A DNA stretch of 64,000 nucleotides from Escherichia coli. Its GTDB lineage: Bacteria > Pseudomonadota > Gammaproteobacteria > Enterobacterales > Enterobacteriaceae. The translations under genes and the position numbers were made by a program. Below, piece after piece: positions 32,791 to 55,726 of the stretch; within the stretch, counting starts at the first letter, position 1; each line of letters starts with the position of its first letter. Location of the stretch: NCBI GenBank assembly GCA_902500125.1, contig GCA_902500125.1_4132.1. One strand, written 5' to 3'. Under the pieces are notes generated by a model, which saw nothing but the letters and a program-made list of their open reading frames with translations, had not been told where the DNA came from and did no database searches.

Positions 32791-32796
32791 GTTCTA

Positions 32797-34110: not shown

Positions 34111-34142
34111 AAAACTATTTTAAAAGTATTTGTAGAAAGTAC

Positions 34143-37350: not shown

Positions 37351-37369
37351 TGGTAATGAGGAAAATAAA

Positions 37370-37591: not shown

Positions 37592-37760
37592 CAACGCGGG
37601 GAGATAATAACTCCCCGTTACTTTTTCAGTACTGAATCATTTAATAGACGGATCTCGGCACCCGGTGGGTTAGTGACTGTTTCGTCTTGATGTAGTAATT
37701 ATGCCAGTACTGGATGCACTTGTCAACAACTATTTTTCAAATACTTTTTATTAAAATACT

Positions 37761-42462: not shown

Positions 42463-42545
42463 GGGTTGACTCCGGTCAGTCCCTTTGCTATTATATATAC
42501 ATACCAGCGATACACTGGCGGCCCATAGGGTGCACAAATGTATCT
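42463..42545 (+). promoter_or_regulatory. extended terminator-promoter module with CCCATAGGGTGC motif
   Basis: GGGTTGAC-TCCG-GTCAGTCCC hairpin, TTGACT/TATTAT, then GCCCATAGGGTGCACAAATGTATC. Confidence 0.55.
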
Positions 42546-42588
42546 ATTATATAAGTATTGAGTACTGAAAACTATTTTTAAAAAGTAC

Positions 42589-42647
42589 TTGCAAACTATC
42601 TCAATAAGCGTATAATGTTTTACATCGAAAGGGGAAACGGTTTCCCC
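42589..42647 (+). promoter_or_regulatory. promoter plus leader hairpin unit
   Basis: TTGCAA-N16-TATAAT then GGGGAAA-CGG-TTTCCCC. Confidence 0.55.
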
Positions 42648-42667
42648 TGGTAATAAGGAAACAAATC

Positions 42668-43009
42668 ATGACTATCTCAATTGCTCAATCTAACTTTGAA
42701 AATGAAATCATCGCCCAGGCACTGCGTTTAAATGATGGTCGGGCCGAAATTAATTACGGTTTCAATTCAGGCGGTTGTGAAAAATATCAGTACTTTGTAA
42801 CGGCTGATGGCGGTGTCCTGGGTATCAATACAGTTATTGTAAACATCCAAAAAATTAATTTCAATGATCCAGACGATAGCCAGTTTTACATCACGGGCGT
42901 AGACGTGAACTATGAGGATGACTCACTAACTGATGACTACACTGGTGAAACGTTAGAAAGTGCATACTGTGAAGATGATTATCAGTCCGGTCCAGAAGAT
43001 TTCGAATAA
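42668..43009 (+). CDS. hypothetical protein (113 aa)
   Basis: Track ORF; AAGGAAACAAA RBS. Confidence 0.55.
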   Translation: MTISIAQSNFENEIIAQALRLNDGRAEINYGFNSGGCEKYQYFVTADGGVLGINTVIVNIQKINFNDPDDSQFYITGVDVNYEDDSLTDDYTGETLESAYCEDDYQSGPEDFE

Positions 43010-43023
43010 TATAAAAAAATAGT

Positions 43024-43083
43024 TTGACAATAGATTATAGTACTGTATAATAGTTTACATCAAGGGGAGAAAAACTTCTCCCC
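43024..43083 (+). promoter_or_regulatory. promoter plus leader hairpin unit
   Basis: TTGACA-N16-TATAAT then GGGGAGAA-AAAC-TTCTCCCC. Confidence 0.55.
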
Positions 43084-43105
43084 ACTAACAGAGAGAGAAA
43101 ACAAA

Positions 43106-43318
43106 ATGGCTAATATCTGCACTGTACTGAAAAATGCAAAACAAGTTTTATTTTCTGATCACGATCATTTAAACAAGGATATTACTGGCGTTCGGAATAT
43201 CAAAGATGTAAAAAGTGTTATGGGTATCTATTGCAATATGAAACGTGTTGGAACGTTCGGCGACAAAGTACTATACCAGGCAGGGGATTACAATTTTACA
43301 CTGACTATCATTAACTAA
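43106..43318 (+). CDS. hypothetical protein (70 aa)
   Basis: Track ORF. Confidence 0.55.
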   Translation: MANICTVLKNAKQVLFSDHDHLNKDITGVRNIKDVKSVMGIYCNMKRVGTFGDKVLYQAGDYNFTLTIIN

Positions 43319-43337
43319 AAATATATTACCAGTACTA

Positions 43338-43365
43338 TTGACATAGTTTGATAGTACTGTATAAT
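43338..43365 (+). promoter_or_regulatory. sigma70-like promoter
   Basis: TTGACA-N16-TATAAT. Confidence 0.5.
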
Positions 43366-43409
43366 AAGTTTTATAAACAGTAGTTAACTTAACCTAAGAG
43401 AGAAATAAA

Positions 43410-43553
43410 ATGATCGCACTGGATTCATTCATCGACGCAGTACTGGCAAAAACTGGCGAGGATCTGACCGCAGAACAATACGCGATGATCGAGCAATGTC
43501 AGCAAGACGGTAAATCGGTGAAAGATACTGTTAAGATTATCCGCAAGATGTAA
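43410..43553 (+). CDS. small protein (47 aa)
   Basis: ATG after AAGAGAGAAATAAA; below track cutoff. Confidence 0.4.
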   Translation: MIALDSFIDAVLAKTGEDLTAEQYAMIEQCQQDGKSVKDTVKIIRKM

Positions 43554-43560
43554 TATTATA

Positions 43561-43590
43561 GCCCACTGGTCAACGCTGGTGGGCTTTAAT
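43561..43590 (+). terminator. rho-independent terminator
   Basis: GCCCAC-loop-GTGGGC plus TTT. Confidence 0.55.
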
Positions 43591-43652
43591 CCTTTACCCT
43601 ATACAATGCCAGTACTAAACCGTTTATCTCGTTAGAATGCGTTACAGGACGT

Positions 43653-43856
43653 TTGACAATGATTAGCATGAAATCAGTACAAAAACAAATAGAAACATTA
43701 TCAAAAATTAAACGTAAACAGTACTCGTTAGAATATACAATCAATGGTAACTATCATCTAATGAAAGAGAATAATTTTATTGTCATTGATGAATCATTGC
43801 AAATCATTAGTATAGTACTGAAAGCATTAATCAATGACAGAAAAAAATTAAAATAA
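43653..43856 (+). CDS. hypothetical protein (AT-rich)
   Basis: Track ORF; start uncertain, alternative ATGs at 43659 and 43668. Confidence 0.4.
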   Translation: MTMISMKSVQKQIETLSKIKRKQYSLEYTINGNYHLMKENNFIVIDESLQIISIVLKALINDRKKLK

Positions 43857-44185
43857 TCTATTGACAATATCATCCAGTACTGGCATAATACTTACATCAA
43901 GACGAGAACGTCACTAACCCATAGGGTGCACAAATGTAACTATATAATATCGATCAATAAATGATCAAAAAAGTACTGGATCAATTTAACATAAGGAGTA
44001 TAATTCTGATCAATTCTTGATCAAAGGCAATATACGCAGTTGAATTTATATAGACATTACAAAGGCGTTACTATCCGTGGTAATGCTGGTGGATATGTAG
44101 TATCATATGGTTTGAATAAGATTAGCACTAGTAGTATTATTGTAGCATTACAGTACTATAGTATTTTTATAATGAGGTTAAAATA

Positions 44186-44443
44186 ATGGCAGTAGGATAC
44201 GCGAAAGACGGGGCCGAACAAGACGAGATTCACGCAGTGATTCAGGCCGCCGTTAACCACGCTAGAAAGCAAATTAACGCACAAAGAGAATCACTGGTAC
44301 ATTGCCTCGACTGCGGCGATAAAATCCCTGAGAATCGACGCCAGGCCGTTATAGGGTGCATGTATTGTATTACTTGCCAGGAGGATCATGATAGTACTTT
44401 TAAAAGAGATCCGCGTAATTGTTGGCATAGATCTATGAGATAA
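44186..44443 (+). CDS. C4 zinc-finger protein, DksA/TraR-like
   Basis: CLDCGDKIPENRR..VIGCMYCITCQ spacing matches TraR/DksA-type finger. Confidence 0.55.
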   Translation: MAVGYAKDGAEQDEIHAVIQAAVNHARKQINAQRESLVHCLDCGDKIPENRRQAVIGCMYCITCQEDHDSTFKRDPRNCWHRSMR

Positions 44444-44450
44444 AAAGTAA

Positions 44451-44478
44451 TTGACAGTACTGAAAGATAGTGTATAAT
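44451..44478 (+). promoter_or_regulatory. sigma70-like promoter
   Basis: TTGACA-N16-TATAAT. Confidence 0.5.
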
Positions 44479-44507
44479 GTTTTATATCTTAACTGAGGAT
44501 AGTAATC

Positions 44508-44864
44508 ATGGGAATACAACATATCACGCGTACTACTGACAATGGAGAGATCACTGGTTATCAGGTACAGGGCAAAGTAGCACAATTGCAGTACTGGTTT
44601 GTTAAACGTGGAATCATTGCACCGGATCTTGATTATGACCGTGTAGCGTTTATTGATTCTCTTTATGTTGATCCTGATAGTCGGGGCAATGGTGAAGGTA
44701 ACGAATTAATGAATGCCTTTATCGATGCCGCCGATGATTCAGATTGTATCATCTTAGAATGCGATACGGGAGAAGATAACGCCTTTAATCTTAAAGAATG
44801 GTACGAAGGTTTCGGATTCGAGGTATTGATAGATAGTGAATATCCTATCATGATTTTATCATAG
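44508..44864 (+). CDS. possible small GNAT-type acetyltransferase
   Basis: Track ORF; LYVDPDSRGNGEGNELMNAF resembles acetyl-CoA-binding motif; weak. Confidence 0.35.
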   Translation: MGIQHITRTTDNGEITGYQVQGKVAQLQYWFVKRGIIAPDLDYDRVAFIDSLYVDPDSRGNGEGNELMNAFIDAADDSDCIILECDTGEDNAFNLKEWYEGFGFEVLIDSEYPIMILS

Positions 44865-44867
44865 TAC

Positions 44868-44924
44868 TTGCATTTAGTTTTCAGTACTGTTATAGTACTT
44901 GCATCAAGGGGAAACATCTTCCCC
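44868..44924 (+). promoter_or_regulatory. promoter plus leader hairpin unit
   Basis: TTGCAT-N17-TATAGT then GGGGAA-ACATC-TTCCCC. Confidence 0.5.
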
Positions 44925-44942
44925 TACTAAGAGGAAATAAAA

Positions 44943-45131
44943 ATGGAAAACTTATCAAGTATTTTAGTACAAGATGATTTCGGTAATCCTGGAAGTGCTA
45001 TCATTGTTCGGGGCAATAAAGCAACGTTTGTTATTGCTGGTGGACCCGTACAGCGTAGCATTAAAAATAATGCTGTTACCATTAATAATGTACGCTATCG
45101 CTTAGATAAAGAATTAATTCATAAACTGTAA
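44943..45131 (+). CDS. hypothetical protein (62 aa)
   Basis: Track ORF; AAGAGGAAATAAA RBS. Confidence 0.55.
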   Translation: MENLSSILVQDDFGNPGSAIIVRGNKATFVIAGGPVQRSIKNNAVTINNVRYRLDKELIHKL

Positions 45132-45161
45132 AAAAGTACTGGATAATAGATTATAGTACTG

Positions 45162-45199
45162 TATAATAGTTTACATGAAGGGGAGAAATGATTCTCCCC
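45162..45199 (+). promoter_or_regulatory. promoter -10 plus leader hairpin
   Basis: TATAAT then GGGGAGA-AATGAT-TCTCCCC. Confidence 0.5.
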
Positions 45200-45216
45200 A
45201 CTAAGAGGAAAGAAAA

Positions 45217-45429
45217 ATGCAAGGTCAACTAATCGTTCGTAAATGGTCTGATACTAACGAAAAACCGTGGGATGTACAATACATCGCCCCCAATGGTGAA
45301 TCCAGATATCAACCAGGTGTAACGCATAGTACTGAGCAATTCGCCGCCGCTCATCGCGAACGTCTGTTACAATCAATGCAGCAAGGTTTCGGTGAAAAAT
45401 TCATTCAGGATCATTGGCTGAAAGATTAA
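45217..45429 (+). CDS. hypothetical protein (70 aa)
   Basis: Track ORF. Confidence 0.55.
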   Translation: MQGQLIVRKWSDTNEKPWDVQYIAPNGESRYQPGVTHSTEQFAAAHRERLLQSMQQGFGEKFIQDHWLKD

Positions 45430-45436
45430 AAAGTAC

Positions 45437-45494
45437 TTGCACTGTACTGAATAAAGTGTATAATGTTTTATATCGGAAGGGGAATAGTTCCCCT
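45437..45494 (+). promoter_or_regulatory. promoter plus leader hairpin unit
   Basis: TTGCAC-N16-TATAAT then GGGGAA-TAGT-TCCCC. Confidence 0.55.
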
Positions 45495-45515
45495 CCTAAC
45501 AAAGAGGAAAGTATA

Positions 45516-45689
45516 ATGGTCCAGGTAGAATTAACAGTACTGAAAGATCTGTTTTATCGGATTGGTACTACTGGCGAATATCCGAAGGGTGATAATGCAA
45601 AACTTTACGTATCACTCGACTTATGGCAACGCGAACAATTAGCAACGGCCTGGCGTAAAGGCAAAGCAGATAGCGAGGTGAAAGCATGA
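45516..45689 (+). CDS. hypothetical protein (57 aa)
   Basis: Internal ATG of track ORF 45414..45689 after AAGAGGAAAGTATA. Confidence 0.5.
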   Translation: MVQVELTVLKDLFYRIGTTGEYPKGDNAKLYVSLDLWQREQLATAWRKGKADSEVKA

Positions 45690-45835
45690 AAGAATTCTTA
45701 TTTGAAGTAGTGTTTCAAGGTGTCGGTAGTAACCAACTGATTCGCTCAAGTGGTTATAATGTTAACCAGGCATGGAATAACATTAAACAAATGTACCCGA
45801 ACGCTATCACCTATCGCAACCCGAAAGAAGTTTAA
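45686..45835 (+). CDS. small protein (49 aa)
   Basis: ATGA-coupled; below track cutoff. Confidence 0.35.
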   Translation: MKEFLFEVVFQGVGSNQLIRSSGYNVNQAWNNIKQMYPNAITYRNPKEV

Positions 45836-45849
45836 AAATAATTGAAAAA

Positions 45850-45930
45850 GGGATTGACTCCGGTCAGTCCCTTTGCTATTATATACGCATAGAAACAAAT
45901 TAGCCCACCGGGTGCATAAATGTATCTATT
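45850..45930 (+). promoter_or_regulatory. extended terminator-promoter module with CCCACCGGGTGC motif
   Basis: Same module as 42463, 48857 and 51610. Confidence 0.55.
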
Positions 45931-45982
45931 GTTTGCTGGTGGCTAGTACTATCAAGTACTGAAAACTATTTTTAAAAAGTAC

Positions 45983-46126
45983 TTGCATTGTAATTAGAAT
46001 CAAGTATAATGTTTTACATCAGGACGGGGAACGAAACAAGTAACCCCGTTAAGTAGTCCAGGAGTAAGACATACGAAAAACTCCCCTGATAAAATAGTTT
46101 GACAATAGAAAGTAAACGAGTATAAT
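45983..46126 (+). promoter_or_regulatory. dual-promoter module enclosing conserved about 80-nt element (copy 2)
   Basis: Near-identical to 35844..35989, including element 46021-46098. Confidence 0.45.
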
Positions 46127-46159
46127 ACTTACATCAACCACTGATAAGGAAACATTAAA

Positions 46160-46435
46160 ATGCGGATTCTACTGACAGCTAACGAAATCGAACAAGTACT
46201 GACTACTAACCTGGAACAATGGAAACGTGATGCAGATATCCAGGCGGTTCAATGGCTTAACGATAAGTTAACGCCGGATGACTTAAGCAAGATTGTAGAT
46301 CCTCAATTCTACGAAGATATTCACGACACGGCTTTAAGCGTCGAGGATGTACTTGATAAGCATTACATTAATACCGATTTACAGGTTTACGGGCGTAAAA
46401 ACTTTATCACTATTCACGACATTTACAATACTTAA
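46160..46435 (+). CDS. hypothetical protein (91 aa)
   Basis: Track ORF. Confidence 0.55.
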   Translation: MRILLTANEIEQVLTTNLEQWKRDADIQAVQWLNDKLTPDDLSKIVDPQFYEDIHDTALSVEDVLDKHYINTDLQVYGRKNFITIHDIYNT

Positions 46436-46438
46436 GTA

Positions 46439-46500
46439 TTGACAAAGTATCTTAGTACTGTATAATAGTTTACATCAAGGCGGGGAAATGGTTCCCCTCC
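46439..46500 (+). promoter_or_regulatory. promoter plus leader hairpin unit
   Basis: TTGACA-N16-TATAAT then GGGGAA-ATGG-TTCCCC. Confidence 0.55.
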
Positions 46501-46522
46501 TAACAAAGAGAGAGAAATAAAA

Positions 46523-46846
46523 ATGGCTATGATCCTTACCCAGAAAGTGGAATTGAAAATTGTAACCTCCTTTGACATTAAAGTTAATCGCTGGACTGAT
46601 CGGAACGGCAATACTTACCACTCTTGCTACGTGTCTGCGTTAATTGGCGACCGCTGGGAAGACCTGGGACACGAAACCTTTACATACGGTTACGGTACGC
46701 AAGGCGAATACACTGGTTTGGAGATCATTAAAGAAACCGTTATAGGTTTCAACCCGAAAGAAAAAGTTATGCACCGCATCGAAAAAGAGATTAACAAAGA
46801 AATAACAGTTCGCTACTACGATGTAAAACGTAAGAAAGACATGTAA
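46523..46846 (+). CDS. hypothetical protein, paralog of 40543..40887
   Basis: Track ORF. Confidence 0.55.
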   Translation: MAMILTQKVELKIVTSFDIKVNRWTDRNGNTYHSCYVSALIGDRWEDLGHETFTYGYGTQGEYTGLEIIKETVIGFNPKEKVMHRIEKEINKEITVRYYDVKRKKDM

Positions 46847-46868
46847 TAGAATCCATTTAAAGTACTAT

Positions 46869-46897
46869 TTGACATTGCCCAGATAGTACTTTATAAT
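46869..46897 (+). promoter_or_regulatory. sigma70-like promoter
   Basis: TTGACA-N17-TATAAT. Confidence 0.5.
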
Positions 46898-46941
46898 AGA
46901 CTCTAACTTGTAGTACTAACTCAACTAATAGGATGTATACC

Positions 46942-47337
46942 ATGATTACTAAATTCTACGCTACCCGTGAAGCTGCCCGTATTGTTGCACGCGAGGAAGG
47001 AGCAGCATTTAAAGACATGGGAACGACAGCACCGAAAGGTCAACGCTGGGCCGTACAGTTCAAAGAAATCTCTGATATTGTGAATTCACCTGAGCCAGTA
47101 CTAACAGCAGCAGAACTAAAACGAGCGGATATGCTGGCGGCAATACTTGACGCACAAGATGAGTTTATCGCTGATTCTGATATCAAAGTACAGGTAAACC
47201 ACACCGCATGGACTCACGCGGATCACCTGGCAAACCTTAAGCGTCCAAGTGAACTGATTCGCAACCAGAAAGAGATCCGACATGATCGTAAGGGTAATCG
47301 TGTAACAGTATACAGTAAACGCCGCCAGGTTATCTAA
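46942..47337 (+). CDS. hypothetical protein, paralog of 35010..35276
   Basis: Internal ATG of track ORF 46933..47337. Confidence 0.55.
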   Translation: MITKFYATREAARIVAREEGAAFKDMGTTAPKGQRWAVQFKEISDIVNSPEPVLTAAELKRADMLAAILDAQDEFIADSDIKVQVNHTAWTHADHLANLKRPSELIRNQKEIRHDRKGNRVTVYSKRRQVI

Positions 47338-47359
47338 TAACTTGCAGTACTAACAACAC

Positions 47360-47384
47360 GGCGGGATCAGTTCCCGCCTTTTTT
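47360..47384 (+). terminator. rho-independent terminator
   Basis: GGCGGGA-TCAG-TTCCCGCC plus TTTTTT. Confidence 0.7.
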
Positions 47385-47398
47385 ATAGGACAAACAAA

Positions 47399-47653
47399 AT
47401 GATTAAGGTTCAACTATATAAAGATAACATCTTACGGGTACACTATAAAGCACCGAAGAGAATCATCACAAAGGCCGTACAGCTTGCTAATGAGTTTATT
47501 AATGGTAACCTATTACCAAGGAAGTTAAGCAACGGGAAACTGCGTGTAATCGACGTGGACACTAACAACAGGATAGTAATCGAGAACACAGGAAAAATAA
47601 ACCTTTATGAGCATCAACAATACAATAAGAAAATAAAACTAATATCACGTTGA
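47399..47653 (+). CDS. hypothetical protein (84 aa)
   Basis: Track ORF; TAGGACAAACAAA upstream. Confidence 0.5.
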   Translation: MIKVQLYKDNILRVHYKAPKRIITKAVQLANEFINGNLLPRKLSNGKLRVIDVDTNNRIVIENTGKINLYEHQQYNKKIKLISR

Positions 47654-47678
47654 CAGTACTCAAATGTTTTAGTATTAT
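47650..47678 (+). promoter_or_regulatory. sigma70-like promoter
   Basis: TTGACA-N17-TATTAT. Confidence 0.45.
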
Positions 47679-47706
47679 GTACACATACCAACACGGGAGA
47701 AACAAA

Positions 47707-47925
47707 ATGAAATTATCTAAAATCGAAAAGAAAACTATTGATGAAGCAGTTAAGCACGGTTATACCTTTCGTAATGATTCACATTTTACCAATTTTCAAC
47801 AGGGGTATCGTACTATTAAAAAACTAATTGACAAAGGTTTATTAGTTGAAGTCAATAATGGGAACGGTATCGAGTATCAGCCAACCCAAGACGCATTATC
47901 TTTAAAGAAATATAATATTATCTAA
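47707..47925 (+). CDS. hypothetical protein (72 aa)
   Basis: Internal ATG of track ORF 47650..47925 after GGGAGAAACAAA. Confidence 0.5.
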   Translation: MKLSKIEKKTIDEAVKHGYTFRNDSHFTNFQQGYRTIKKLIDKGLLVEVNNGNGIEYQPTQDALSLKKYNII

Positions 47926-47954
47926 TTGACAGTACTCAAATGTTTTAGTACTAT
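47926..47954 (+). promoter_or_regulatory. sigma70-like promoter
   Basis: TTGACA-N17-TACTAT. Confidence 0.45.
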
Positions 47955-47983
47955 ATGTACATACCAACACGGGGAAAAACAAA

Positions 47984-48226
47984 ATGATTACTTTAGAAAA
48001 ACGTATCAAAGAAACTACATCGCTGGTGGAATTGTTAACAGTACTCAAATGTAAAACAACACCATTCAGCACGCCGGACTTTATTAATATGGTTGATGTT
48101 AATGGTCGCTATCGTATCACGGTCGAACAAGGAGCGGCGAAAGTATTCAGTACTAAAAACACGAAGGAAGTGATCCACGCCGTTAATGTTAAAAAAGTAG
48201 TTGCCATTGATAGTAAAGTACTGTAA
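47984..48226 (+). CDS. hypothetical protein (80 aa)
   Basis: Track ORF. Confidence 0.5.
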   Translation: MITLEKRIKETTSLVELLTVLKCKTTPFSTPDFINMVDVNGRYRITVEQGAAKVFSTKNTKEVIHAVNVKKVVAIDSKVL

Positions 48227-48257
48227 TATAGTTTCATTAACTCAAGGAGAACATGCA

Positions 48258-48842
48258 ATGCGTAATTATACTAAATTCATCCGTACACTGTCAGAAATGG
48301 AAACCAACAAAGAGATCCTTTCAGCTTGTCGGTTAGCTGGCCTGGAGATCATCGGTGCTGGTTCTTCCCGTATAGTTTTCGCTTTAAATGATCGGTTAGT
48401 GATTAAGGTCGCGAATTGTGATGCGGGTGTAGAACAAAATGAAACTGAATGTAAGGTATGGAATTTTTTAGACTATGACCGCCCTCAGTTGAAACAGTAC
48501 TTTGCAAAGGTGCATATGCATTTATGCGATCCTGATAATATGTTTATCGTTATGGATCGGTTGAGTACTGCAAGCAAAGGTAGTGTGAAGCACGTAAACG
48601 CGTGCAATGAATTAAAGTACAATATTAAACGTAATGCAATCGAACGCCAGCACCGCTTTGCTGATGCACTACAACACGTCGATGATACATTATCAACACT
48701 AACGATAAGAGATATCAGAAAACAGAATATCGGCCAGGATCGTAATGGCCTTATTAAAGTACTTGATTACGGTTTAACCTGCAATATCTGGAATCAGTAC
48801 TATAAAAAGCGTGATGTGGCAGCAAGTAAGGTAACACGATAA
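48258..48842 (+). CDS. protein-kinase-like protein
   Basis: IGAGSSRIVFALNDRLVIKVA and IRDIRKQNIGQDRNGLIKVLDYG motifs; AAGGAGA RBS. Confidence 0.5.
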   Translation: MRNYTKFIRTLSEMETNKEILSACRLAGLEIIGAGSSRIVFALNDRLVIKVANCDAGVEQNETECKVWNFLDYDRPQLKQYFAKVHMHLCDPDNMFIVMDRLSTASKGSVKHVNACNELKYNIKRNAIERQHRFADALQHVDDTLSTLTIRDIRKQNIGQDRNGLIKVLDYGLTCNIWNQYYKKRDVAASKVTR

Positions 48843-48856
48843 AAAAGATTAAAAAA

Positions 48857-48930
48857 GGGATTGACTCCGGTCAGTCCCTTTGCTATTATATATCCATTGA
48901 GAGATAACTCACTGACCCATAGGGTGCGGA
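48857..48930 (+). promoter_or_regulatory. extended terminator-promoter module with CCCATAGGGTGC motif
   Basis: Same module as 42463. Confidence 0.55.
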
Positions 48931-48983
48931 AGTGTATCTATTATATAAGTATTCAGTACTGAAAACTATTTTTTAAAAAGTAC

Positions 48984-49043
48984 TTGCATTGTACTTAGAA
49001 TCAAGTATAATGTTTTATATCGAGAGGGGGAAATGGTTCTCCC
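48984..49043 (+). promoter_or_regulatory. promoter plus leader hairpin unit
   Basis: TTGCAT-N16-TATAAT then GGGGGAA-ATGG-TTCTCCC. Confidence 0.55.
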
Positions 49044-49065
49044 TGGTATATTAAGGAATAAAATC

Positions 49066-49287
49066 ATGACTACAATGACTTGCATTTACGCTTCCAATCG
49101 TCTGAATGATGCGGCCTTTAATGTTGATTCAGAATATCAATGTTATCGGGATGAAAATAAAAAAGTTTTTGTAGTTGATAATAATGGTTTCCATATTGAA
49201 TTACAATCCGGCTTCACTGGTGTTGATGGTAAATCAGTATGGGGCGTACAGGATGATAAAGGTACATATCATTTTAAACGTAATTAA
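49066..49287 (+). CDS. hypothetical protein (73 aa)
   Basis: Internal ATG of track ORF 49033..49287. Confidence 0.55.
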   Translation: MTTMTCIYASNRLNDAAFNVDSEYQCYRDENKKVFVVDNNGFHIELQSGFTGVDGKSVWGVQDDKGTYHFKRN

Positions 49288-49291
49288 GTAT

Positions 49292-49350
49292 TTGACAAAG
49301 TATCTTAGTACTGTATAATAGTTTACATCAAGGGGAGAATAGTTCTCCCC
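49292..49350 (+). promoter_or_regulatory. promoter plus leader hairpin unit
   Basis: TTGACA-N16-TATAAT then GGGGAGA-ATAG-TTCTCCCC. Confidence 0.55.
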
Positions 49351-49371
49351 GATACTAAAAGGAATAAAATC

Positions 49372-49776
49372 ATGACTACTACTAATCTTGCTCGGAATAT
49401 CGCCAACGATAAAAATCATGCTGCAATGGTCGCTGGTTACATTGAAGCTATGCAATTCAGTACTGTACATAATGATAACGGCGATTACCTGGAAGATTAT
49501 GAGTTATCTGATGAAGCACGTCAAGCGGCGGTGATTGCATGTTCTCGCTTCATTGAGAAACACGGTAATGATCTGGAAGTAGTTCGCGGTATGTTTATTG
49601 ATTACGGTTATGAGCAAGCTGGTCATGATCTGTTCCTTACCCGCGAAGGTCACGGAACTGGTTTTTGGGATCGTGGTTTAGGTCACTATGGCGATGTATT
49701 CACGAAGTACTGCGAAGAAATCAACGTTTGCGATCCCTATGTAGGCGATGATAACTTAATCTATATGGGCGAATAA
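49372..49776 (+). CDS. hypothetical protein (134 aa)
   Basis: Track ORF. Confidence 0.6.
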   Translation: MTTTNLARNIANDKNHAAMVAGYIEAMQFSTVHNDNGDYLEDYELSDEARQAAVIACSRFIEKHGNDLEVVRGMFIDYGYEQAGHDLFLTREGHGTGFWDRGLGHYGDVFTKYCEEINVCDPYVGDDNLIYMGE

Positions 49777-49782
49777 AAGTAT

Positions 49783-49841
49783 TTGACAAAGTATATCAGT
49801 ACTGTATAATAGTTTACATCAAGGGGAGAATAGTTCTCCCC
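49783..49841 (+). promoter_or_regulatory. promoter plus leader hairpin unit
   Basis: Near-duplicate of 49292 unit. Confidence 0.55.
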
Positions 49842-49863
49842 AATACTAAAAGGAAACAAAATT

Positions 49864-50136
49864 ATGTCCAGCTACTCCGCTACTATGATCATTAAAGATA
49901 TGAACGGTAATCCTACTTCTGCTGGTGGATCATTTGGAAATATTAACTTAGATGGGCGGTTATCCATGCAATCAGCCATCGATGCAGCGAAAGAAGTTTT
50001 TAAGAATGAATGTACTGTTAGTAAGCTGGATTATATGGGTTTCGCTATCGAGAAAACTACTCGTTTTGTGAACTACAAAAATCCACTGATGATTGATACT
50101 AACCTGAAAGCTAACGAAGTGGGGTACTTATTATGA
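49864..50136 (+). CDS. hypothetical protein (90 aa)
   Basis: Track ORF. Confidence 0.55.
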   Translation: MSSYSATMIIKDMNGNPTSAGGSFGNINLDGRLSMQSAIDAAKEVFKNECTVSKLDYMGFAIEKTTRFVNYKNPLMIDTNLKANEVGYLL

Positions 50137-50324
50137 CAGTAGAAGAAGTAAAAAAAGTACTGGCAGTACTACGATATCATAATCATTGCAAGGTGAAGAA
50201 TGATCCTGATTATCTTGATTCATCCCTGGAGGAAGACACCTTGAACGCTATAAGCCATATGCAGACATTAGCAAAGCGTATGACTGAAAAGAACATGCCG
50301 GACTATATCGGAAATAAAATTTAA
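50133..50324 (+). CDS. hypothetical protein (63 aa)
   Basis: Track ORF; ATGA overlap. Confidence 0.5.
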   Translation: MTVEEVKKVLAVLRYHNHCKVKNDPDYLDSSLEEDTLNAISHMQTLAKRMTEKNMPDYIGNKI

Positions 50325-50331
50325 AAAGTAC

Positions 50332-50391
50332 TTGCATTGTAGTTAGATTAACGTATAATGTTTTATATCGAGAGGGGGAAATGGTTTCCCC
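50332..50391 (+). promoter_or_regulatory. promoter plus leader hairpin unit
   Basis: TTGCAT-N16-TATAAT then GGGGGAA-ATGG-TTTCCCCT. Confidence 0.55.
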
Positions 50392-50411
50392 TCAAGTCCA
50401 GGAGATACACA

Positions 50412-50675
50412 ATGAACACTATCGAAATCACTATCAATGCACACGTATACGACAACGTAGTACTGCAAACTACTATGACCGCTAATGATACCAGTACTTT
50501 GCGGAATACTGTTATTAGTGCCGTATGTGCTGCAATCGGTGATGTATCCCTGGAAAATGCAGAACATATCAACAACGGTTTCACTATGTGCAAGCGTGAT
50601 AACGCAAAACATATCATCGTGGAAGGTTACGGCGGTGTAGAATTTAATGTTTATATGAAAAAAGTACTTGCATAA
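50412..50675 (+). CDS. hypothetical protein (87 aa)
   Basis: Internal ATG of track ORF 50358..50675. Confidence 0.55.
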   Translation: MNTIEITINAHVYDNVVLQTTMTANDTSTLRNTVISAVCAAIGDVSLENAEHINNGFTMCKRDNAKHIIVEGYGGVEFNVYMKKVLA

Positions 50676-50724
50676 TAACTAAAACAAAGTATAATGTTTT
50701 GCATAGGGGGAGATATCCTCCCCC
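50668..50724 (+). promoter_or_regulatory. promoter plus leader hairpin unit
   Basis: TTGCAT-N16-TATAAT then GGGGGAG-ATAT-CCTCCCCC. Confidence 0.55.
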
Positions 50725-50742
50725 ACTAAAAGGAGTAATAAA

Positions 50743-50967
50743 ATGGCTAACTTTGATGAACTGATGCGGGAAGTAGCTAACCTGGCAGAAGAGAAGAAAT
50801 CATTCGATTCTATCTATAACACCGCTCACCGTGATTCAGTACTGGCATGTAACCAGGATCAAAAAGATGAACTAATCGCCACCTATCATGAAGCATGGAA
50901 GTACTACCGACAATGGGAGAAAGAAGAAAGTGAGTCTACCATTGACGGCCTCAATAATCTAATCTAA
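50743..50967 (+). CDS. hypothetical protein (74 aa)
   Basis: Track ORF. Confidence 0.55.
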   Translation: MANFDELMREVANLAEEKKSFDSIYNTAHRDSVLACNQDQKDELIATYHEAWKYYRQWEKEESESTIDGLNNLI

Positions 50968-50986
50968 AAGTTTTATTTCAGTACTA

Positions 50987-51017
50987 TTGACATAGCTTGA
51001 TAGTACTGATGTAATAA
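50987..51017 (+). promoter_or_regulatory. sigma70-like promoter
   Basis: TTGACA then weak -10; same architecture as 40187. Confidence 0.4.
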
Positions 51018-51043
51018 CTTTACTAACTACAAGGGGAAACATA

Positions 51044-51301
51044 ATGGATCAGTTCACACAATATCGGGTAAATCCTCAAGCTATGGCCTACGTAGAAGAC
51101 CATAAAACGTTACCAGTACTGCAACCAGTTAAAGGCCATATCTATCGTGCAATGTCGTGGTGTGCGGCCCAGGATGGCTATAAAACCGTAGCCGTTGGTA
51201 TGTACTGCGGTAATGGTGAATGGTTTGATCCAAATAATCCGGTATCCATTGACAGTACTGAAAAAATGAAATGGGCCGACTACATCGAAGATATTTCATA
51301 A
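51044..51301 (+). CDS. hypothetical protein (85 aa)
   Basis: Track ORF. Confidence 0.55.
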   Translation: MDQFTQYRVNPQAMAYVEDHKTLPVLQPVKGHIYRAMSWCAAQDGYKTVAVGMYCGNGEWFDPNNPVSIDSTEKMKWADYIEDIS

Positions 51302-51307
51302 AAACTA

Positions 51308-51368
51308 TTTGACAGTACTAACCAGTAATGTATAATGTTTTACATAGAGCGGGGGAATAGTTCTCCCG
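51308..51368 (+). promoter_or_regulatory. promoter plus leader hairpin unit
   Basis: TTGACA-N16-TATAAT then GCGGGGGAA-TAG-TTCTCCCGC. Confidence 0.55.
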
Positions 51369-51391
51369 CCAATAGTTTGGAGTAAAACATT

Positions 51392-51592
51392 ATGTCTATC
51401 GCTATCGCCCTGGTTGAAGTACTGAAAGAAGCTAAAGCCAACCAGATCGACGTAAAGATCCAGGAACTACAAAACGGCTTAATCGGCTGTACTTGTACCG
51501 CTGGTGGAGCGGCAGACTATCGAGAACACGAATCACTCGAATCACTGGTTCGGTATCTTACCATGATCGTTGATGATTGGAGAATCATCTAA
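51392..51592 (+). CDS. hypothetical protein (66 aa)
   Basis: Track ORF. Confidence 0.55.
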   Translation: MSIAIALVEVLKEAKANQIDVKIQELQNGLIGCTCTAGGAADYREHESLESLVRYLTMIVDDWRII

Positions 51593-51609
51593 CAAAAAAG
51601 AATAAAAAA

Positions 51610-51690
51610 GGGATTGACTCCGGTCAGTCCCTTTGCTATTATATACGCATAGACAAAAACTAGCCCACAGGGTGCATAGGTGTATCCAAA
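51610..51690 (+). promoter_or_regulatory. extended terminator-promoter module with CCCACAGGGTGC motif
   Basis: Same module as 42463. Confidence 0.55.
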
Positions 51691-51836
51691 ATATATAGTT
51701 AATAACGGTGAGTAACTATCTGCTGGTGGAACTAAAACTATTAATAAAAAAGTATTGACAAAGTATATCAGTACTGCAATAATGTATCTCGTAGGGCGGC
51801 AATGGTGCGACGGCCCACAAAGTTAGGAGATTCAAA

Positions 51837-52169
51837 ATGACTACTTCAATCGCTATCGTTAAAGCTTTCATCCGTACTAATGTTTCCTCTGTATTCATCG
51901 ACGGCCTCGACCGTAACGTAGAATACTCAATCATTATCGCACAAACGGCAAACGGTTCTCGGTACATCCTGAATGATAGTGAAGCAAATCACTACTACTT
52001 CACTAAAGCCACTGGCTTTAAACGCATCGATGCTGATGTAGTATACGCTAAGATGAATAAGCTGGTAGACAAGATTAACGCGAAAGGTACTATCGATTTA
52101 CAGTACTGGACCGAAACCGATCCAGAATATGGATCTCACCGCTACCTGAATCCAGGTATTAAAATGTAA
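51837..52169 (+). CDS. hypothetical protein (110 aa)
   Basis: Track ORF; TAGGAGA RBS. Confidence 0.6.
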   Translation: MTTSIAIVKAFIRTNVSSVFIDGLDRNVEYSIIIAQTANGSRYILNDSEANHYYFTKATGFKRIDADVVYAKMNKLVDKINAKGTIDLQYWTETDPEYGSHRYLNPGIKM

Positions 52170-52258: not shown

Positions 52259-52660
52259 ATGACCTTCTCAATCAATTCCTTCGCTGACGTTTTAGTACTG
52301 GCCCGGACTTTTGGTAAAGCTGGCCTTGAACACGCTGTAAGTAATGGTCATATGCACCCTGAATATTGCCGCATCATTGGAAGCTGTAAACGTTGGGCCG
52401 TGTCCCGTAACATTGAGATTGAAAACTTCAATGACGGTAACAACGAATATACAGTTGATGCAGTATTCGAATCCGTTGATCTCGGCGGTATCTATAACAC
52501 TAACCTGAATGATGTGCGTATCGTTCGCACGGGGTTCGGTGCTTATGATGTATCTATCCGTGAAGCTATGGACAAGGGATACATTAGCAAGGACCAGTTA
52601 GCTTACATCATGCAGCAAACTAAGGAACGTAACGAAGCACGTACTATCTTAGGGCTGTAA
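52259..52660 (+). CDS. hypothetical protein (133 aa)
   Basis: Internal ATG of track ORF 52226..52660. Confidence 0.6.
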   Translation: MTFSINSFADVLVLARTFGKAGLEHAVSNGHMHPEYCRIIGSCKRWAVSRNIEIENFNDGNNEYTVDAVFESVDLGGIYNTNLNDVRIVRTGFGAYDVSIREAMDKGYISKDQLAYIMQQTKERNEARTILGL

Positions 52661-52728
52661 GCAATACACATCACCAAACATCATAGGCCGCTCTCTAGCG
52701 GCCTTAACTATATCAGGAGGGCATACAT

Positions 52729-52938
52729 ATGTTCTATACAGTATACAGCGTTCTAGGCACTATTGCAGGCGTACATGATAACGTCGATAGTGCTATGCGT
52801 ACAGTACTGCAACAGGTTCCACTAAAGCCTAAGACCATTAAGCAGATGACAGCACGACTAACCAGGGCGACGGCTGGCGTGGAAGTATGGCAGGACTATG
52901 GGGATACACAGATAATCGTAAGCGTAACGAAGGATTAA
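52729..52938 (+). CDS. hypothetical protein (69 aa)
   Basis: Track ORF; CAGGAGG RBS. Confidence 0.55.
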   Translation: MFYTVYSVLGTIAGVHDNVDSAMRTVLQQVPLKPKTIKQMTARLTRATAGVEVWQDYGDTQIIVSVTKD

Positions 52939-52970
52939 TGCGTAAAAGGATTTAGTACTGAATCATAAAA

Positions 52971-53028
52971 AAGTCAAGGCATTTTTAAAAATCAGCGTTA
53001 AAAAAATGCATAGGTAATCCCTTGACTT
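52971..53028. terminator. long inverted repeat, possible bidirectional terminator
   Basis: AAGTCAAGG ... CCTTGACTT arms with A-run before and T-run after. Confidence 0.4.
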
Positions 53029-53129
53029 TTATGAATAAAAAGGGATTGGACTATGGCAAAATGCGTAGGGGGCTTAACTGCGGGTAACCTTAGCGACTTC
53101 GATAAAGGGGTATTACTAATAAAATGTTA

Positions 53130-53796: not shown

Positions 53797-54008
53797 TTAT
53801 TATAGAAAACTCATATCAATATACTGAACGCATCGCTGCCAGACAACTTGAAATCCTCATAATATACGAAGAGACTTCTGATTTAAACTTAGCCGAGGTA
53901 TTGGAAAATGATATACTATTGGGTGCATTCTTAGGAACAGACTATCAGAAGTATTATGAGGAAAAGTATTTGTCATCTCTTGAGAAATATATCAGGAGCA
54001 AATTATGA
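53793..54008 (+). CDS. family B small tandem paralog
   Basis: Track ORF; LGTDYQKYY. Confidence 0.55.
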   Translation: MIIIENSYQYTERIAARQLEILIIYEETSDLNLAEVLENDILLGAFLGTDYQKYYEEKYLSSLEKYIRSKL

Positions 54009-54217
54009 TTTTTTTAACACCAGAAGAATATAAGAAACGTTTCAATTCCGCACAGGGTGAAATCTTACTTATATACCTTTCAAATGCAGACCTTAACTTA
54101 TCAAGGGTATTAGAAAAAGATTTACTTATGGGTGCATTCCTTGATACAGACTTTCAGGTGTATTATGTAGGGGAATACTTAATTGCACTTCAGAATTATA
54201 TCAGGAGTAAACTATGA
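54005..54217 (+). CDS. family B small tandem paralog
   Basis: Track ORF; LDTDFQVYY. Confidence 0.55.
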   Translation: MIFLTPEEYKKRFNSAQGEILLIYLSNADLNLSRVLEKDLLMGAFLDTDFQVYYVGEYLIALQNYIRSKL

Positions 54218-54441
54218 AACATTTAAGTAATTCCGAGAAGAATAAAATTATCATTGCTGCAATAAACAAATATTTTACACTTCCTCACAAAGAAGGTTTA
54301 TGTATAAGAGAACACAGGATAAACACCACCGATATACGCATGATGGCTGTACTGGGGACGAACTTCCAGGAAGAGTATGTTATTGCACACATAGTTGCAC
54401 TCAAGAATTACATTATGGACAAATGTAATGAACATCATTAA
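54214..54441 (+). CDS. family B small tandem paralog
   Basis: Track ORF; LGTNFQEEY. Confidence 0.55.
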   Translation: MKHLSNSEKNKIIIAAINKYFTLPHKEGLCIREHRINTTDIRMMAVLGTNFQEEYVIAHIVALKNYIMDKCNEHH

Positions 54442-54652
54442 TAACTTTGAATACGAGGCCCGTGCTAAGAGTGCCAGAAAAAAAGAGAACACCATTTACT
54501 TCACTATGATGTACTTACAATGGACTGAAATTGAAGAAAAGGTTGCTGAAGTATGGATGTTGGAATTCATGGGGACGCAGTATCAGAATAGGTTTGCGGG
54601 TGAGTATATCAATGTTCTTATGAAACAAATAGAAAGAAAGGAAAAGAACTAA
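54428..54652 (+). CDS. family B small tandem paralog
   Basis: First ATG in track ORF 54395..54652 (track start is TTG); MGTQYQNRF. Confidence 0.5.
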   Translation: MNIINNFEYEARAKSARKKENTIYFTMMYLQWTEIEEKVAEVWMLEFMGTQYQNRFAGEYINVLMKQIERKEKN

Positions 54653-54810
54653 TGGTTTTCATTAACATATCTGACCAACTCGATACTAAACTAGAAGTCG
54701 AGCAGAGTGAGGGATGGATGTTGTACTTTCTTGGAACTTCTCATCAGAATTTTTATATCCATGAACACATAGTTGCACTCACAAATCTAATAAGGGATAA
54801 ATGTAAATGA
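54652..54810 (+). CDS. family B small tandem paralog (short, 52 aa)
   Basis: TAATG-coupled; LGTSHQNFY; below track cutoff. Confidence 0.45.
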   Translation: MVFINISDQLDTKLEVEQSEGWMLYFLGTSHQNFYIHEHIVALTNLIRDKCK

Positions 54811-55064
54811 AACACTTGACGAACGATGAATATTCACTTAGAATTCGAAAGCTCACCCCAGAAGCAAGAGTAATCTACGATGACGATGCACTTTCATGGA
54901 ACGAGATGAAAGTTAAAGTTCATGAGCTATGGTTGCTGTACTTTGTGGGAACCCAATATCAAGAGAAATATTGTACCGATTATCTTGAACAACTAATGGA
55001 TCTTATACAGATAAAACTAAATGAACGAATTGTGGAAAAATATGAAAACTTTATCAAGCACTGA
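54807..55064 (+). CDS. family B small tandem paralog
   Basis: Track ORF; VGTQYQEKY. Confidence 0.55.
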   Translation: MKHLTNDEYSLRIRKLTPEARVIYDDDALSWNEMKVKVHELWLLYFVGTQYQEKYCTDYLEQLMDLIQIKLNERIVEKYENFIKH

Positions 55065-55293
55065 GTATCAAACTGCCCTCTTCTCCCTTCTAAACACCCT
55101 CCGCACGAACAATAAACTTTATAATTCCCGTGAAGCTGATATCGTCAACGCTGATGTATATCTTAATAAATTCATAGGGACTAACTATCAAGAACTGTTC
55201 ACTCTACGATATATCGCTGCATTGAGAAACGAAATATCAGATAAAACCCGTCAAGCCAGAAGAGAATGGAATAAACAATGCGACAAAGACTAA
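55042..55293 (+). CDS. family B small tandem paralog
   Basis: Internal ATG of track ORF 55021..55293; IGTNYQELF. Confidence 0.5.
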   Translation: MKTLSSTEYQTALFSLLNTLRTNNKLYNSREADIVNADVYLNKFIGTNYQELFTLRYIAALRNEISDKTRQARREWNKQCDKD

Positions 55294-55514
55294 ATCACAA
55301 AATGTATTGTAAACTATTGCAGACACTGGCACAGAAACACTATGACACTGTATCTGAAATATTACCCTATGATATCATGCGTTTAATTCATAGTGAGGCA
55401 GAGATGCTTGTACTGATGACAGGCACTGATAAAAAAGCAATTGCCAAATCAATAGATATGTTCATCGAAGCACAATGTCAACACATTAGAACCGAGATAT
55501 GGAGACGAGAATGA
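55278..55514 (+). CDS. family B small tandem paralog (divergent motif)
   Basis: Track ORF; MTGTDKKAI. Confidence 0.5.
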   Translation: MRQRLNHKMYCKLLQTLAQKHYDTVSEILPYDIMRLIHSEAEMLVLMTGTDKKAIAKSIDMFIEAQCQHIRTEIWRRE

Positions 55515-55726
55515 TAACACTAAATGAGTTTCAGTATCATTGGAGGTTACAAACTATCAAATCAAAAGTGTATAGTATTGTGTTAAACAAATCTATTGCA
55601 CAAGAGGACAAATGTGTTATAATAGCTGAAATGAAGTTGGGTGCTTTCGTAGGGACAAACTATCAAAACATCTACACTGACGTATTGTTAAGTGCCTTAC
55701 GTAACAAGGTGGTATCCAAAATATGA
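55511..55726 (+). CDS. family B small tandem paralog
   Basis: ATGA-coupled ATG in track ORF; VGTNYQNIY. Confidence 0.55.
   Translation: MITLNEFQYHWRLQTIKSKVYSIVLNKSIAQEDKCVIIAEMKLGAFVGTNYQNIYTDVLLSALRNKVVSKI

Follow-up and report, generated by a model that had tools for sequence, protein, structure and literature searches.

Among bacteria, sibling small RNAs (sRNAs) such as Qrr1-5 and OmrA/B are paralogous short RNAs that share an invariant segment, diverge in their 5′ stem and have their own promoters. The other described systems closest to the one considered here come from phages. Promoter-early stem-loops (PeSLs) are composite terminator/promoter cassettes of T4-like phages, in which they are documented to mediate gene shuffling (PMC2839356, PMC4122927). 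The put RNA of phage HK022 binds the zinc-binding domain of the RNA polymerase β′ subunit (PMC9378689), and the terminal repeat of PA5oct, a related Pseudomonas jumbo phage, carries two highly transcribed non-coding RNAs (PMC7318152). Here we describe a motif, CCCAYMGGGTGC, repeated in a 64,000-nt stretch of Escherichia coli assembly GCA_902500125.1 (contig GCA_902500125.1_4132.1), the whole of which is referred to as the window. We give an even chance to the reading in which very short early transcription units make up a multi-copy family with this motif as their invariant core, and in which their products would be non-coding RNAs of about 100 nt or 5′ leaders.

Two overlapping parts of the window (42.3-46.1 kb and 32.3-53.6 kb) were 90-96% identical in megablast to jumbo coliphages of the genus Asteriusvirus, among them WPEC5, Ecwhy_1, vB_Ec-M-J, phAPEC6, 121Q and PBECO4. 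Judged by its sequence, the window is part of an Asteriusvirus-like jumbo coliphage of about 350 kb. Its counterpart in vB_Ec-M-J is an annotated direct terminal repeat of 21,525 bp, the first and last 600 bp of which aligned with positions 32398-32983 and 52491-53090. The equivalent of the direct terminal repeat in the window (32398-53090, about 20.7 kb) is a presumably early region that is dense in promoters and contains all 11 units. Terminal repeats of relatives measure about 20-22 kb, and the region is regarded as probably early (PMC5259590, PMC13070987). It is crowded with small plus-strand open reading frames (ORFs), most of them preceded by a near-consensus sigma-70 promoter of their own, a leader with a 5′ hairpin and a Shine-Dalgarno (SD) sequence. 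The repeat is strongly mosaic among Asteriusviruses, with the best relative covering 76% of it in 15 pieces. Just past it, at 53.6-56 kb, genes overlap as in a single operon.

The exact motif was found nine times in the window (33513-, 35679+, 35736-, 37658-, 42522+, 43918+, 45904+, 48916+ and 51664+; units are named by core position and strand), with none expected and none in 100 shuffles. A covariance model built on 56 non-redundant cores recovered exactly 11 copies, all between 33,491 and 51,697. An earlier note on this DNA had listed the recurrences of the motif; the sites were real, though its coordinates were off by 1-9 nt and two degenerate units, 33672+ and 33729-, had been overlooked. 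A scan of the complete genome of the relative TH47 (MT446416, 352,450 bp) placed all nine exact matches and all 11 model hits at 88.9-104.9 kb, the terminal-repeat equivalent of that phage. Because all TH47 copies are confined to these 16 kb (4.6% of the genome), the distribution is far from random, which bears out the non-random placement proposed earlier. Outside the TH47 terminal repeat, at 7123-7137 and 12569-12583, two perfect palindromes are formed from the GGGTGC half of the core (GCACCCATTGGGTGC, GCACCTCTAGGGTGC); these may be ordinary terminator stems.

A regular recurrence of about every 3 kb had also been claimed. This held for four modules that combine a unit with a hairpin-promoter, with gaps of 3387, 3007 and 2753 nt (coefficient of variation, CV, 0.10; P ~0.009 for four random points, the four having been chosen post hoc). 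It did not hold for the 11-unit family, in which spacing was irregular (CV 0.84 vs 0.92 for random placement), nor for the RaK2 and GAP32 loci, where hairpin-promoter units were spaced 0.6-2.6 kb apart. The elements were orientation-structured, as suggested, but the bias was weak (one-sided Fisher test, 0.045) and the early stretch was mixed: the four minus-strand units are confined to the opening 5.3 kb of the repeat, where two plus-strand units also lie, and the five distal units are all on the plus strand.

Two exact-pattern scans over 2.9 million viral contigs matched jumbo-phage contigs of 345-378 kb and a few fragments, and no others. Most of these contigs had several copies, and by their sizes they correspond to CBB and fHe-Yen9-04, for which published sizes agree, and to what we take to be RaK2, 121Q and GAP32. 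The family was present in every Rak2-like jumbo-phage group sampled, and in related jumbo-phage loci totalling 257 kb the covariance model detected 118 copies, of which 103 were distinct. A bacterial counterpart or host mimic was rejected as a candidate, since 596 Gb of bacterial and archaeal genomes yielded 111 scattered single matches, none of them clustered, where about 280 chance matches are expected assuming equal base frequencies. The core motif was absent from PA5oct, including its terminal repeat, and the family could not be extended to that phage. No Rfam family matched at gathering thresholds over the 64 kb, and none overlapped a unit at E values up to 10 (33.0-52.5 kb). ARAGORN detected no tRNA or tmRNA genes in the window, and a full-text literature search with the 12-mer returned unrelated primer matches only.

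Every unit had its own sigma-70-like promoter on the same strand, with the -10 hexamer ending 19-31 nt upstream, both in the 11 window units and in 77 distinct units drawn from 19 related loci and the window. A distance of 13-22 nt separates the predicted transcription start from the core, which has the orientation of its promoter. The promoter was strong in 10 of the 11 window units, and the -35 hexamer was weak in two (33513-, TTGCTT; 33672+, TTGCTA with N18). Unit promoters mostly have 17-bp spacers and a CATAAT or TATTAT -10, whereas neighbouring mRNA promoters have 16-bp spacers and TATAAT. The predicted unit transcripts start with A; outside the modules the predicted starts are at about 33546-, 33762-, 35660+, 35762-, 37691- and 43896+. 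After the leader come a YUAR linker, the core (R-CCC-AYA-GGGU-GC), a mostly purine 5-mer and a 3′ box (U-N-Y-R-U-C-Y-A-U), the first U of which is nearly invariant by column counts. The core is not palindromic; 11 of its 12 positions hardly vary between genera, and the box follows after a fixed gap of 5 nt, not 6 as had been reported. In 37 of 56 units a -10-like TATANT begins at position 7 or 9 of the box, and NUG is located 5 nt after GGGUGC in 34 of 56. This anatomy is consistent with the earlier idea of short transcripts from the upstream promoter.

The leader forms a predicted 5′ hairpin (P1) in seven of the 11 window units and in about 70% of the family, with a covarying stem of 3-5 bp and a purine-rich loop of 6-8 nt (GAGAAA, GCGAAA, AGAUAA and AGAACAA, for example). 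Units without the hairpin have an A-rich leader, such as AUAGACAAAAACUAG in unit 51664+. The mean folding energy of the leaders was -2.73 kcal/mol, compared with -0.72 kcal/mol in shuffles (z = -13.6), and 29 distinct stem/loop combinations were found. In a covariation test on 20 hexaloop hairpins, which had been pre-selected by folding, 92.5% of cells were paired vs 44.8% in shuffles and 40 cells had double-sided changes vs 12.6; neither the pairing nor the change value was reached in any of 500 shuffles. Besides compensatory changes, the P1 stems contain G-U pairs. Two further helices were tried and rejected. Pairing of the leader (5′ end or hairpin loop AGAUA/AUAGA) with UAUCU/UCUAU of the 3′ box, as a pseudoknot or a closing helix, reached -3.62 kcal/mol vs -3.40 when permuted (P = 0.15). 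For a third hairpin, in which the purine 5-mer would pair with UCU of the box, the register varied between units.

GGGU of the core has two possible partners, RCCC upstream (helix P2) and RYCY downstream (helix P2′), and the two helices are mutually exclusive. P2 (RCCC/GGGU with a 3-nt loop) was 95.6-97% paired and was the RNAalifold consensus; its double change CCU..AGG was seen twice (8 of 500 shuffles). P2′ (GGGUG(C)/(G)YRYCY with a 6-nt loop) was 88-91% paired overall and 94-100% at its five inner pairs. At its always-paired positions the sole changes were U/C opposite G and A/G opposite U, and shifting the register lowered pairing to 31-67%. The rare core variants GGA and GGGUA retain P2′, and one of them disrupts P2. 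Helix energies averaged -3.5 kcal/mol for P2 and -3.0 kcal/mol for P2′, the latter being the more stable in 33 of 56 units. A core that is bistable between P2 and P2′ is probable on these predicted pairings.

Units occur in three genomic settings. In the first, represented by the four modules, the unit lies directly behind a terminator-like hairpin that holds its -35 hexamer, and an ordinary mRNA promoter follows some 90 bp further on. The modules are present where the earlier note placed them, and their hairpin and promoter were both recovered by an independent scan. The pattern GGG(A/T)TTGAC-TCCG-GTCAGTCCC occurs four times, with a variant at 14040 and none expected, and scored as terminator-like; TTGACT-N17-TATTAT with its -35 inside the stem begins at 42466, 45854, 48861 and 51614. 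Each module promoter matches 10 of 12 consensus positions and has a TG upstream of the -10. The hairpins have 8-12 pairs and a short, interrupted T tract (TTTGCTATTAT), and their terminator-like score is a sequence-level prediction. A tandem arrangement of unit and mRNA promoter was also found in RaK2.

All features of the four modules are on the plus strand. The hairpin of module 1, GGGTTGAC-TCCG-GTCAGTCC (42463-42482), contains the TTGACT of unit 42522+ (42466-42547; TTGACT-N17-TATTAT), which has a predicted start at about 42501, the 5′ hairpin CCAG-CGAUACA-CUGG, its core at 42522-42533 and the box TGTATCTAT at 42539-42547 (E 6e-6, covariance model). An mRNA promoter/leader cassette follows at 42582-42649 (AAAGTACTTGCA-N16-TATAAT, 5′ hairpin and SD), ahead of a gene at 42668-43009. 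In module 2 a 12-pair hairpin (45847-45874) again contains TTGACT, and unit 45904+ (45854-45929; TTGACT-N17-TATTAT, start at about 45889) has the A-rich leader AUAGAAACAAAUUAG and no 5′ hairpin, with its core at 45904-45915 and its box at 45921-45929; the next mRNA cassette lies at 45976-46043. Module 3 has its hairpin, with the -35, at 48854-48881. Its unit, 48916+ (48861-48941, start at about 48896), was the best hit of the covariance model (E 1e-7), with the 5′ hairpin UGAG-AGAUAA-CUCA, core 48916-48927 and box 48933-48941, and is followed by a cassette at 48977-49044. In module 4 the hairpin with the -35 (51607-51634) precedes unit 51664+ (51614-51689, start at about 51649, core 51664-51675, box TGTATCCAA at 51681-51689), and the next promoter, TTGACA-N17-AATAAT at 51755-51783, lies ahead of a gene at 51837-52169.

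An early mRNA cassette of the kind seen after module 1 is repeated in 23 copies between 34136 and 52237, in which the promoter (AAAGTACTTGCA-N16-TATAAT) is followed by +1 ACAUCAAG, a 5′ hairpin GGGGAGAA..UUCUCCCC, ACUAA and an SD sequence. An AUCAAG...ACUAA frame is common to unit leaders and mRNA cassettes, as if the core motif had replaced the SD and ORF. Short matches of 80-87% to phages of about 150 kb (Phapecoctavirus and others) were also seen and may be early mRNA cassettes. Outside the repeat, hairpins with an embedded -35 occur without the core at 3278-3310 (GGTTGACTTCGGTCAGCC) and 14040-14075 (GGGTTGACTTAGGTCGGCCC), right before ordinary genes. The hairpin-promoter is separable from the motif.

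The second setting comprises stand-alone copies, 37658- in the window and others in the related loci L005, L017 and L018. Each is closed by a canonical terminator 36-40 nt past the core, the predicted RNAs are about 100 nt long, and the copies checked against ORF maps were all on the strand opposite the genes. Unit 37658- (37644-37726, minus strand) has the 5′ hairpin GAC-GAAACA-GUC, its core at 37669-37658 and the box TCCGTCTAT, and is antisense to genes. With a promoter at 37726-37698 and a terminator at 37617-37597 it fits, at about 100 nt, the layout of a bacterial-type small RNA gene, in which a promoter and an intrinsic terminator enclose 50-300 nt free of ORFs; copies in related loci fit it too, and the four modules do not. 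The terminator (CGGGGAG-UUAUUAU-CUCCCCG) is bidirectional and is the predicted end both of this unit and of the plus-strand gene 37340-37591.

The third setting is that of convergent pairs, 35679+/35736- and 33672+/33729-, with exactly 45 nt between GGGTGC and GCACCC. This distance recurs in several other jumbo-phage contigs in which the spacer sequence differs. Unit 35679+ (35625-35704) has the 5′ hairpin GGC-AGAUAA-GCC and its core at 35679-35690, and its partner 35736- (35722-35797, minus strand) has the promoter TTGACA-N17-CATAAT, the leader CAUGACAACAGCUAA and its core at 35747-35736. The second pair is degenerate. Unit 33672+ (33615-33703) has a weak promoter (TTGCTA-N18-TACTAT), the core CTGCTAGGGTGC (E 0.03) and a GGGUGC/GUAUCC hairpin with U7 that scored as terminator-like; unit 33729- (33715-33796, minus strand) has TTGACT-N16-TATAAT, the hairpin CGC-GAGAAA-GCG and the core CCCAGGGGGTGC at 33740-33729 (E 0.01). 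In some relatives the members of convergent pairs are 56 or 63 nt apart, with a palindrome resembling a Fur box in the middle. Such palindromes (AATGATWATCATT) were seen in related loci L004 (2825, 8083), L006 (915, 961), L015 (3123) and L018 (6094); four of the six lie between two convergent units, and one agrees with the E. coli Fur box at 16 of 19 positions. As a feature of the window such a box was rejected: it is absent there and present in other genera. These sequences are hints of a possible iron/Fur control of convergent pairs in some genera.

Two more units complete the set in the window. Unit 43918+ (43861-43943) has TTGACA-N17-CATAAT, no terminator hairpin, the 5′ hairpin GACG-AGAA-CGUC, its core at 43918-43929 and the box TGTAACTAT. 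It is followed by five GATC/TGATCAA motifs within about 80 bp (43950-44030), between the unit and a gene for a DksA/TraR-type zinc-finger protein (44186-44443); the cluster is kept in phage JP4. Unit 33513- (33499-33580, minus strand; E 9e-4 in the covariance model) has the weaker -35 TTGCTT, TATAAT, the hairpin AGUC-GAGAAA-GACU, its core at 33524-33513 and the box variant UUACGCCCAA. Units lie at transcription-unit boundaries, right after terminators or with their -35 inside one, in keeping with the earlier description of them as punctuating sites.

The four modules are, from their sequence features, PeSL-like terminator/promoter cassettes, each fused to one unit. Like PeSLs, they are small repeated cassettes made of a terminator-type stem-loop and a near-consensus sigma-70 early promoter, they lie in a plastic early region with small genes of unknown function on either side, and they are predicted to halt upstream transcription and then restart it. 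PeSLs lie at indel junctions in hyperplastic regions, where they flank ORFans, and form mini-circles by recombination between cassettes; the modules lie in a mosaic region among unrelated genes of unknown function. Gene duplication as the origin of the modules was rejected, the genes downstream belonging to four unrelated PHROG families of unknown function. Unlike in PeSLs, where the stem-loop is upstream of the AT-rich tract and the -35 and separate from them, the -35 of the modules extends over the 5′ stem arm into the beginning of the loop, and an A tract precedes the hairpin. Moreover, the phages concerned are Rak2-like jumbo phages and not T4-like proper, and the cassette drives a conserved non-coding unit rather than an ORF. 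The core motif has no PeSL counterpart. The hairpin-plus-promoter half is a PeSL variant, whereas the motif-bearing unit appears to have no described counterpart.

From the co-orientation of unit and promoter at a similar distance, the compensatory upstream hairpin and the limitation of box variation to bases that pair with GGGUG, we conclude that the motif is most likely part of a transcribed RNA element, and the identity of the units as an RNA-level element is well supported by these predicted features. Host RNA polymerase would transcribe the units in the first minutes of infection, if the terminal repeat is, by analogy with phage T5, the first DNA injected. Two repeats per virion genome would give about 22 gene copies of the unit. 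The products may be abundant structured RNAs of about 100 nt or, in the modules, a structured 5′ leader that continues into the next gene. The 5′ hairpin would stabilise the RNA, and the invariant core may be a sequence-specific recognition element, most probably for a host or phage protein, with the alternative pairing setting whether the core is exposed or sequestered. The RNAs could then act in trans as a decoy, a sponge or a ribonucleoprotein component. A trans-acting decoy or regulator is our best guess for their role, and is favoured over antitermination in cis because stand-alone copies that face away from genes and reach their terminator at a fixed distance are numerous. Rather unlikely, in our view, is a bolder version in which a bistable early RNA class of all Rak2-like jumbo phages, present in about 20 copies per virion genome, would attach to the RNA polymerase of the host or titrate one of its RNA-binding or defence proteins as the RNA-based part of take-over, with convergent copies giving a defined double-stranded RNA.

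As experimental precedent for such RNAs there are only those of PA5oct, which are unrelated in sequence to the units; they are single-copy, with lengths of 236 and 451 nt, and lie in a repeat without the core motif. The sibling sRNAs of bacteria have a similar multi-copy layout, in which each copy has its own promoter and some their own terminator. However, siblings expose a single-stranded seed, whereas the invariant segment of the units is predicted to be self-complementary and bistable, and convergent pairing of copies would be unusual for them.

Several observations weigh against a family of early RNAs. The covariation test was carried out on hairpins pre-selected by folding, and about 30% of units lack the 5′ hairpin. 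P2′ shows no true covariation and cannot be proven by it because its 5′ strand is invariant; the pairing-compatible variation could also reflect transition bias. A single global fold for the stand-alone RNAs was rejected, as single-sequence folds of six of them were inconsistent and weakly better than shuffles (z -0.3 to -5.4). In all four modules no convincing terminator was detected between the unit and the next promoter, so that the module element may be a leader only. The ends and the abundance of the unit RNAs are predictions. Finally, the fixed convergent geometry of 45 nt and the core-N5-box layout would also suit a DNA-binding protein.

We ranked all other explanations below that of an early RNA family. 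The units might act in cis by modifying the polymerase that transcribes them, in the manner of HK022 put or lambda nut, their nascent hairpins giving it resistance to pausing and termination; transcription restarted at each cassette could then pass the terminators of the following gene block and leave the repeat. This is unlikely, although it stands first among the alternatives. Likeness to put was judged on its described features and not on sequence: put is a stem-loop RNA that acts without translation, directly downstream of an early sigma-70 promoter, as the element always is here, and putL is followed by a -10-like sequence, its sigma-dependent pause element, which the TATANT of the units recalls (PMC9378689). 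P1 and P2 would be two small adjacent hairpins, and five rightward units lie ahead of gene blocks with predicted terminators, with the operon-like genes beyond the repeat. However, put is about 70 nt long, with two long stems and a triplex, and is present in two copies per genome that face operons, while P1 and P2 span about 35 nt, roughly half that size, and have 3-5-bp stems. Genes run opposite to four of the 11 window units and to the terminator-ended units that were checked in RaK2 (L005) and L018, stand-alone units reach a terminator just after the core, and convergent pairs make no sense for processive read-through. With lambda nut the units share a short hairpin with a purine-rich loop beside a conserved linear element near the start of an early transcript. 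They differ in the order and spacing of elements, and in that no N-like protein was identified for them and no boxA consensus lies in a unit. Their loop is a hexaloop (GNGAAA or AGAUAA; 6-8 nt family-wide), that of boxB a GNRA-like pentaloop. In the window, boxA (CGCUCUUA or UGCUCUUUA) was at chance level (52 vs 50 expected), as was ops GGCGGTAGNNTG with up to two mismatches (22 vs 17.5 expected), and neither was found in a unit. Less probable than an antiterminator is a double-stranded DNA site for a phage protein, which the earlier note had favoured along with a punctuating function. Bound by a phage or host protein, it would serve as an operator or roadblock around +15 to +45 of some early promoters, or it would be the upstream box of a phage-specific promoter (CCCACA-N17-TATANT). 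The near-invariance of the core and the fixed gap to the second box suit such a site, as do the exact 45-nt dyad in several distinct contigs despite differing spacers and the promoter-like geometry of core, 17-nt interval and -10-like hexamer. A DNA site has no obvious need for promoter co-orientation and a similar distance, yet all units show both; a covarying hairpin with G-U pairs is strand-specific, the box varies only so as to keep pairing with GGGUG, the core is non-palindromic, and in stand-alone copies a promoter at this place would start about 30 nt before the terminator. These features point to RNA.

T4-type phages begin early replication from promoter-derived R-loops, and the units could, with still lower probability, provide primer or R-loop transcripts for replication origins of the T4 oriF/oriG or ColE1 type, the GGG/CCC clamp steadying an RNA-DNA hybrid by an AT-rich unwinding region. 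Units do show the apparent order of strong promoter, GC-rich core and very AT-rich DNA; the GATC/TGATCAA cluster after unit 43918+ and the 17-nt AT-rich spacer flanked by convergent pairs could be read in the same way. However, AT-richness near units is little informative because the whole genome is AT-rich (35% GC), 11 copies per repeat are many for origins, and neither a conserved 5′ hairpin nor terminator-ended copies are necessary for priming. It is very improbable that the approximately 90-bp modules serve mainly as PeSL-like recombination cassettes, providing homology for the shuffling of gene blocks and yielding a functionless transcript. The mosaic repeat, the unrelated families after the four modules and the shuffling precedent of PeSLs (PMC2839356, PMC4122927) would agree with this, but the 12-mer is invariant across genera while flanks, hairpin stems and spacers diverge, and the compensatory changes in the 5′ hairpin would be left unexplained. 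To the last explanation we give the lowest probability of all: the units as minigenes or start-stop translation traps like the lambda bar minigenes, with GGGUG as SD sequence and AUG, GUG or UUG opening a frame of 1-7 codons (MYL*, AUG-UAA). The NUG after GGGUGC and frames such as AUG UAU CUA UAG and AUG UAA are found, and CUA is a rare E. coli codon. Nevertheless, only 61% of units have G as the last base of the supposed start codon, many having AUC, GUC or UUA, neither reading frame nor peptide is conserved, and the SD-like bases are sequestered in either helix. The minigene was rejected for its lack of a conserved start codon.

Other sequence features were noted in and around the repeat. 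The palindrome AGTACT is more than 10-fold over-represented in the window (1-64000), with 278 strand-matches (about 139 sites) vs 21 strand-matches expected. It lies near -40 and -15 of most early promoters and also after many units (TTCAGTACTGAA), and may be a regulator site or a site related to modification or restriction. The E. coli Chi sequence GCTGGTGG is present in 16 copies in the window vs 0.63 expected. It is dense at 43575-51729, with eight plus-strand copies in the distal half of the terminal repeat, and the copies at 45935 and 51722 come directly after units (45904+ and 51664+). Opposed Chi pairs occur at 32976/32988 and 39491/39553, the former 0.6 kb from the left end of the repeat; this enrichment could protect the linear ends from RecBCD. 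The ORF-free first 1.7 kb of the terminal repeat, which holds three units, also contains, at 33949-34120, about 2.5 tandem copies of a 53-bp sequence, of which two are identical. Two arrays of paralogs lie outside the repeat: about eight minus-strand genes, some 1.2 kb apart and with near-identical start regions, at 19718-27859, and, just past the repeat at 53902-58143, small overlapping plus-strand ORFs with a common GGNACNAACTATCAA segment. The ORF upstream of module 3 (48201-48842) had a weak match, short of the curated cutoff, to a protein kinase domain (E = 0.004 in Pfam), and relatives have a serine/threonine kinase annotated in this region.

Rak2-group jumbo phages (Asteriusvirus, RaK2, GAP32, CBB and relatives from Yersinia and Erwinia) are under development for therapy. 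Their terminal repeats of about 20 kb are annotated only as dozens of hypothetical proteins, and we know of almost no work on their early programme. The family described here, apparently unannotated and clade-wide, with about 11 short promoter-driven elements per repeat, would give a concrete handle on the first minutes of infection. The units are candidates for a new RNA family suitable for Rfam, and can mark the terminal-repeat, presumably early, region in assemblies in which the repeat has collapsed. If the units were only leaders or insulators, they would amount to a modest refinement of PeSL-type regulatory cassettes. Should their RNAs act on RNA polymerase, or on a host factor that serves in defence or binds RNA, this would be a new case of host take-over by RNA.

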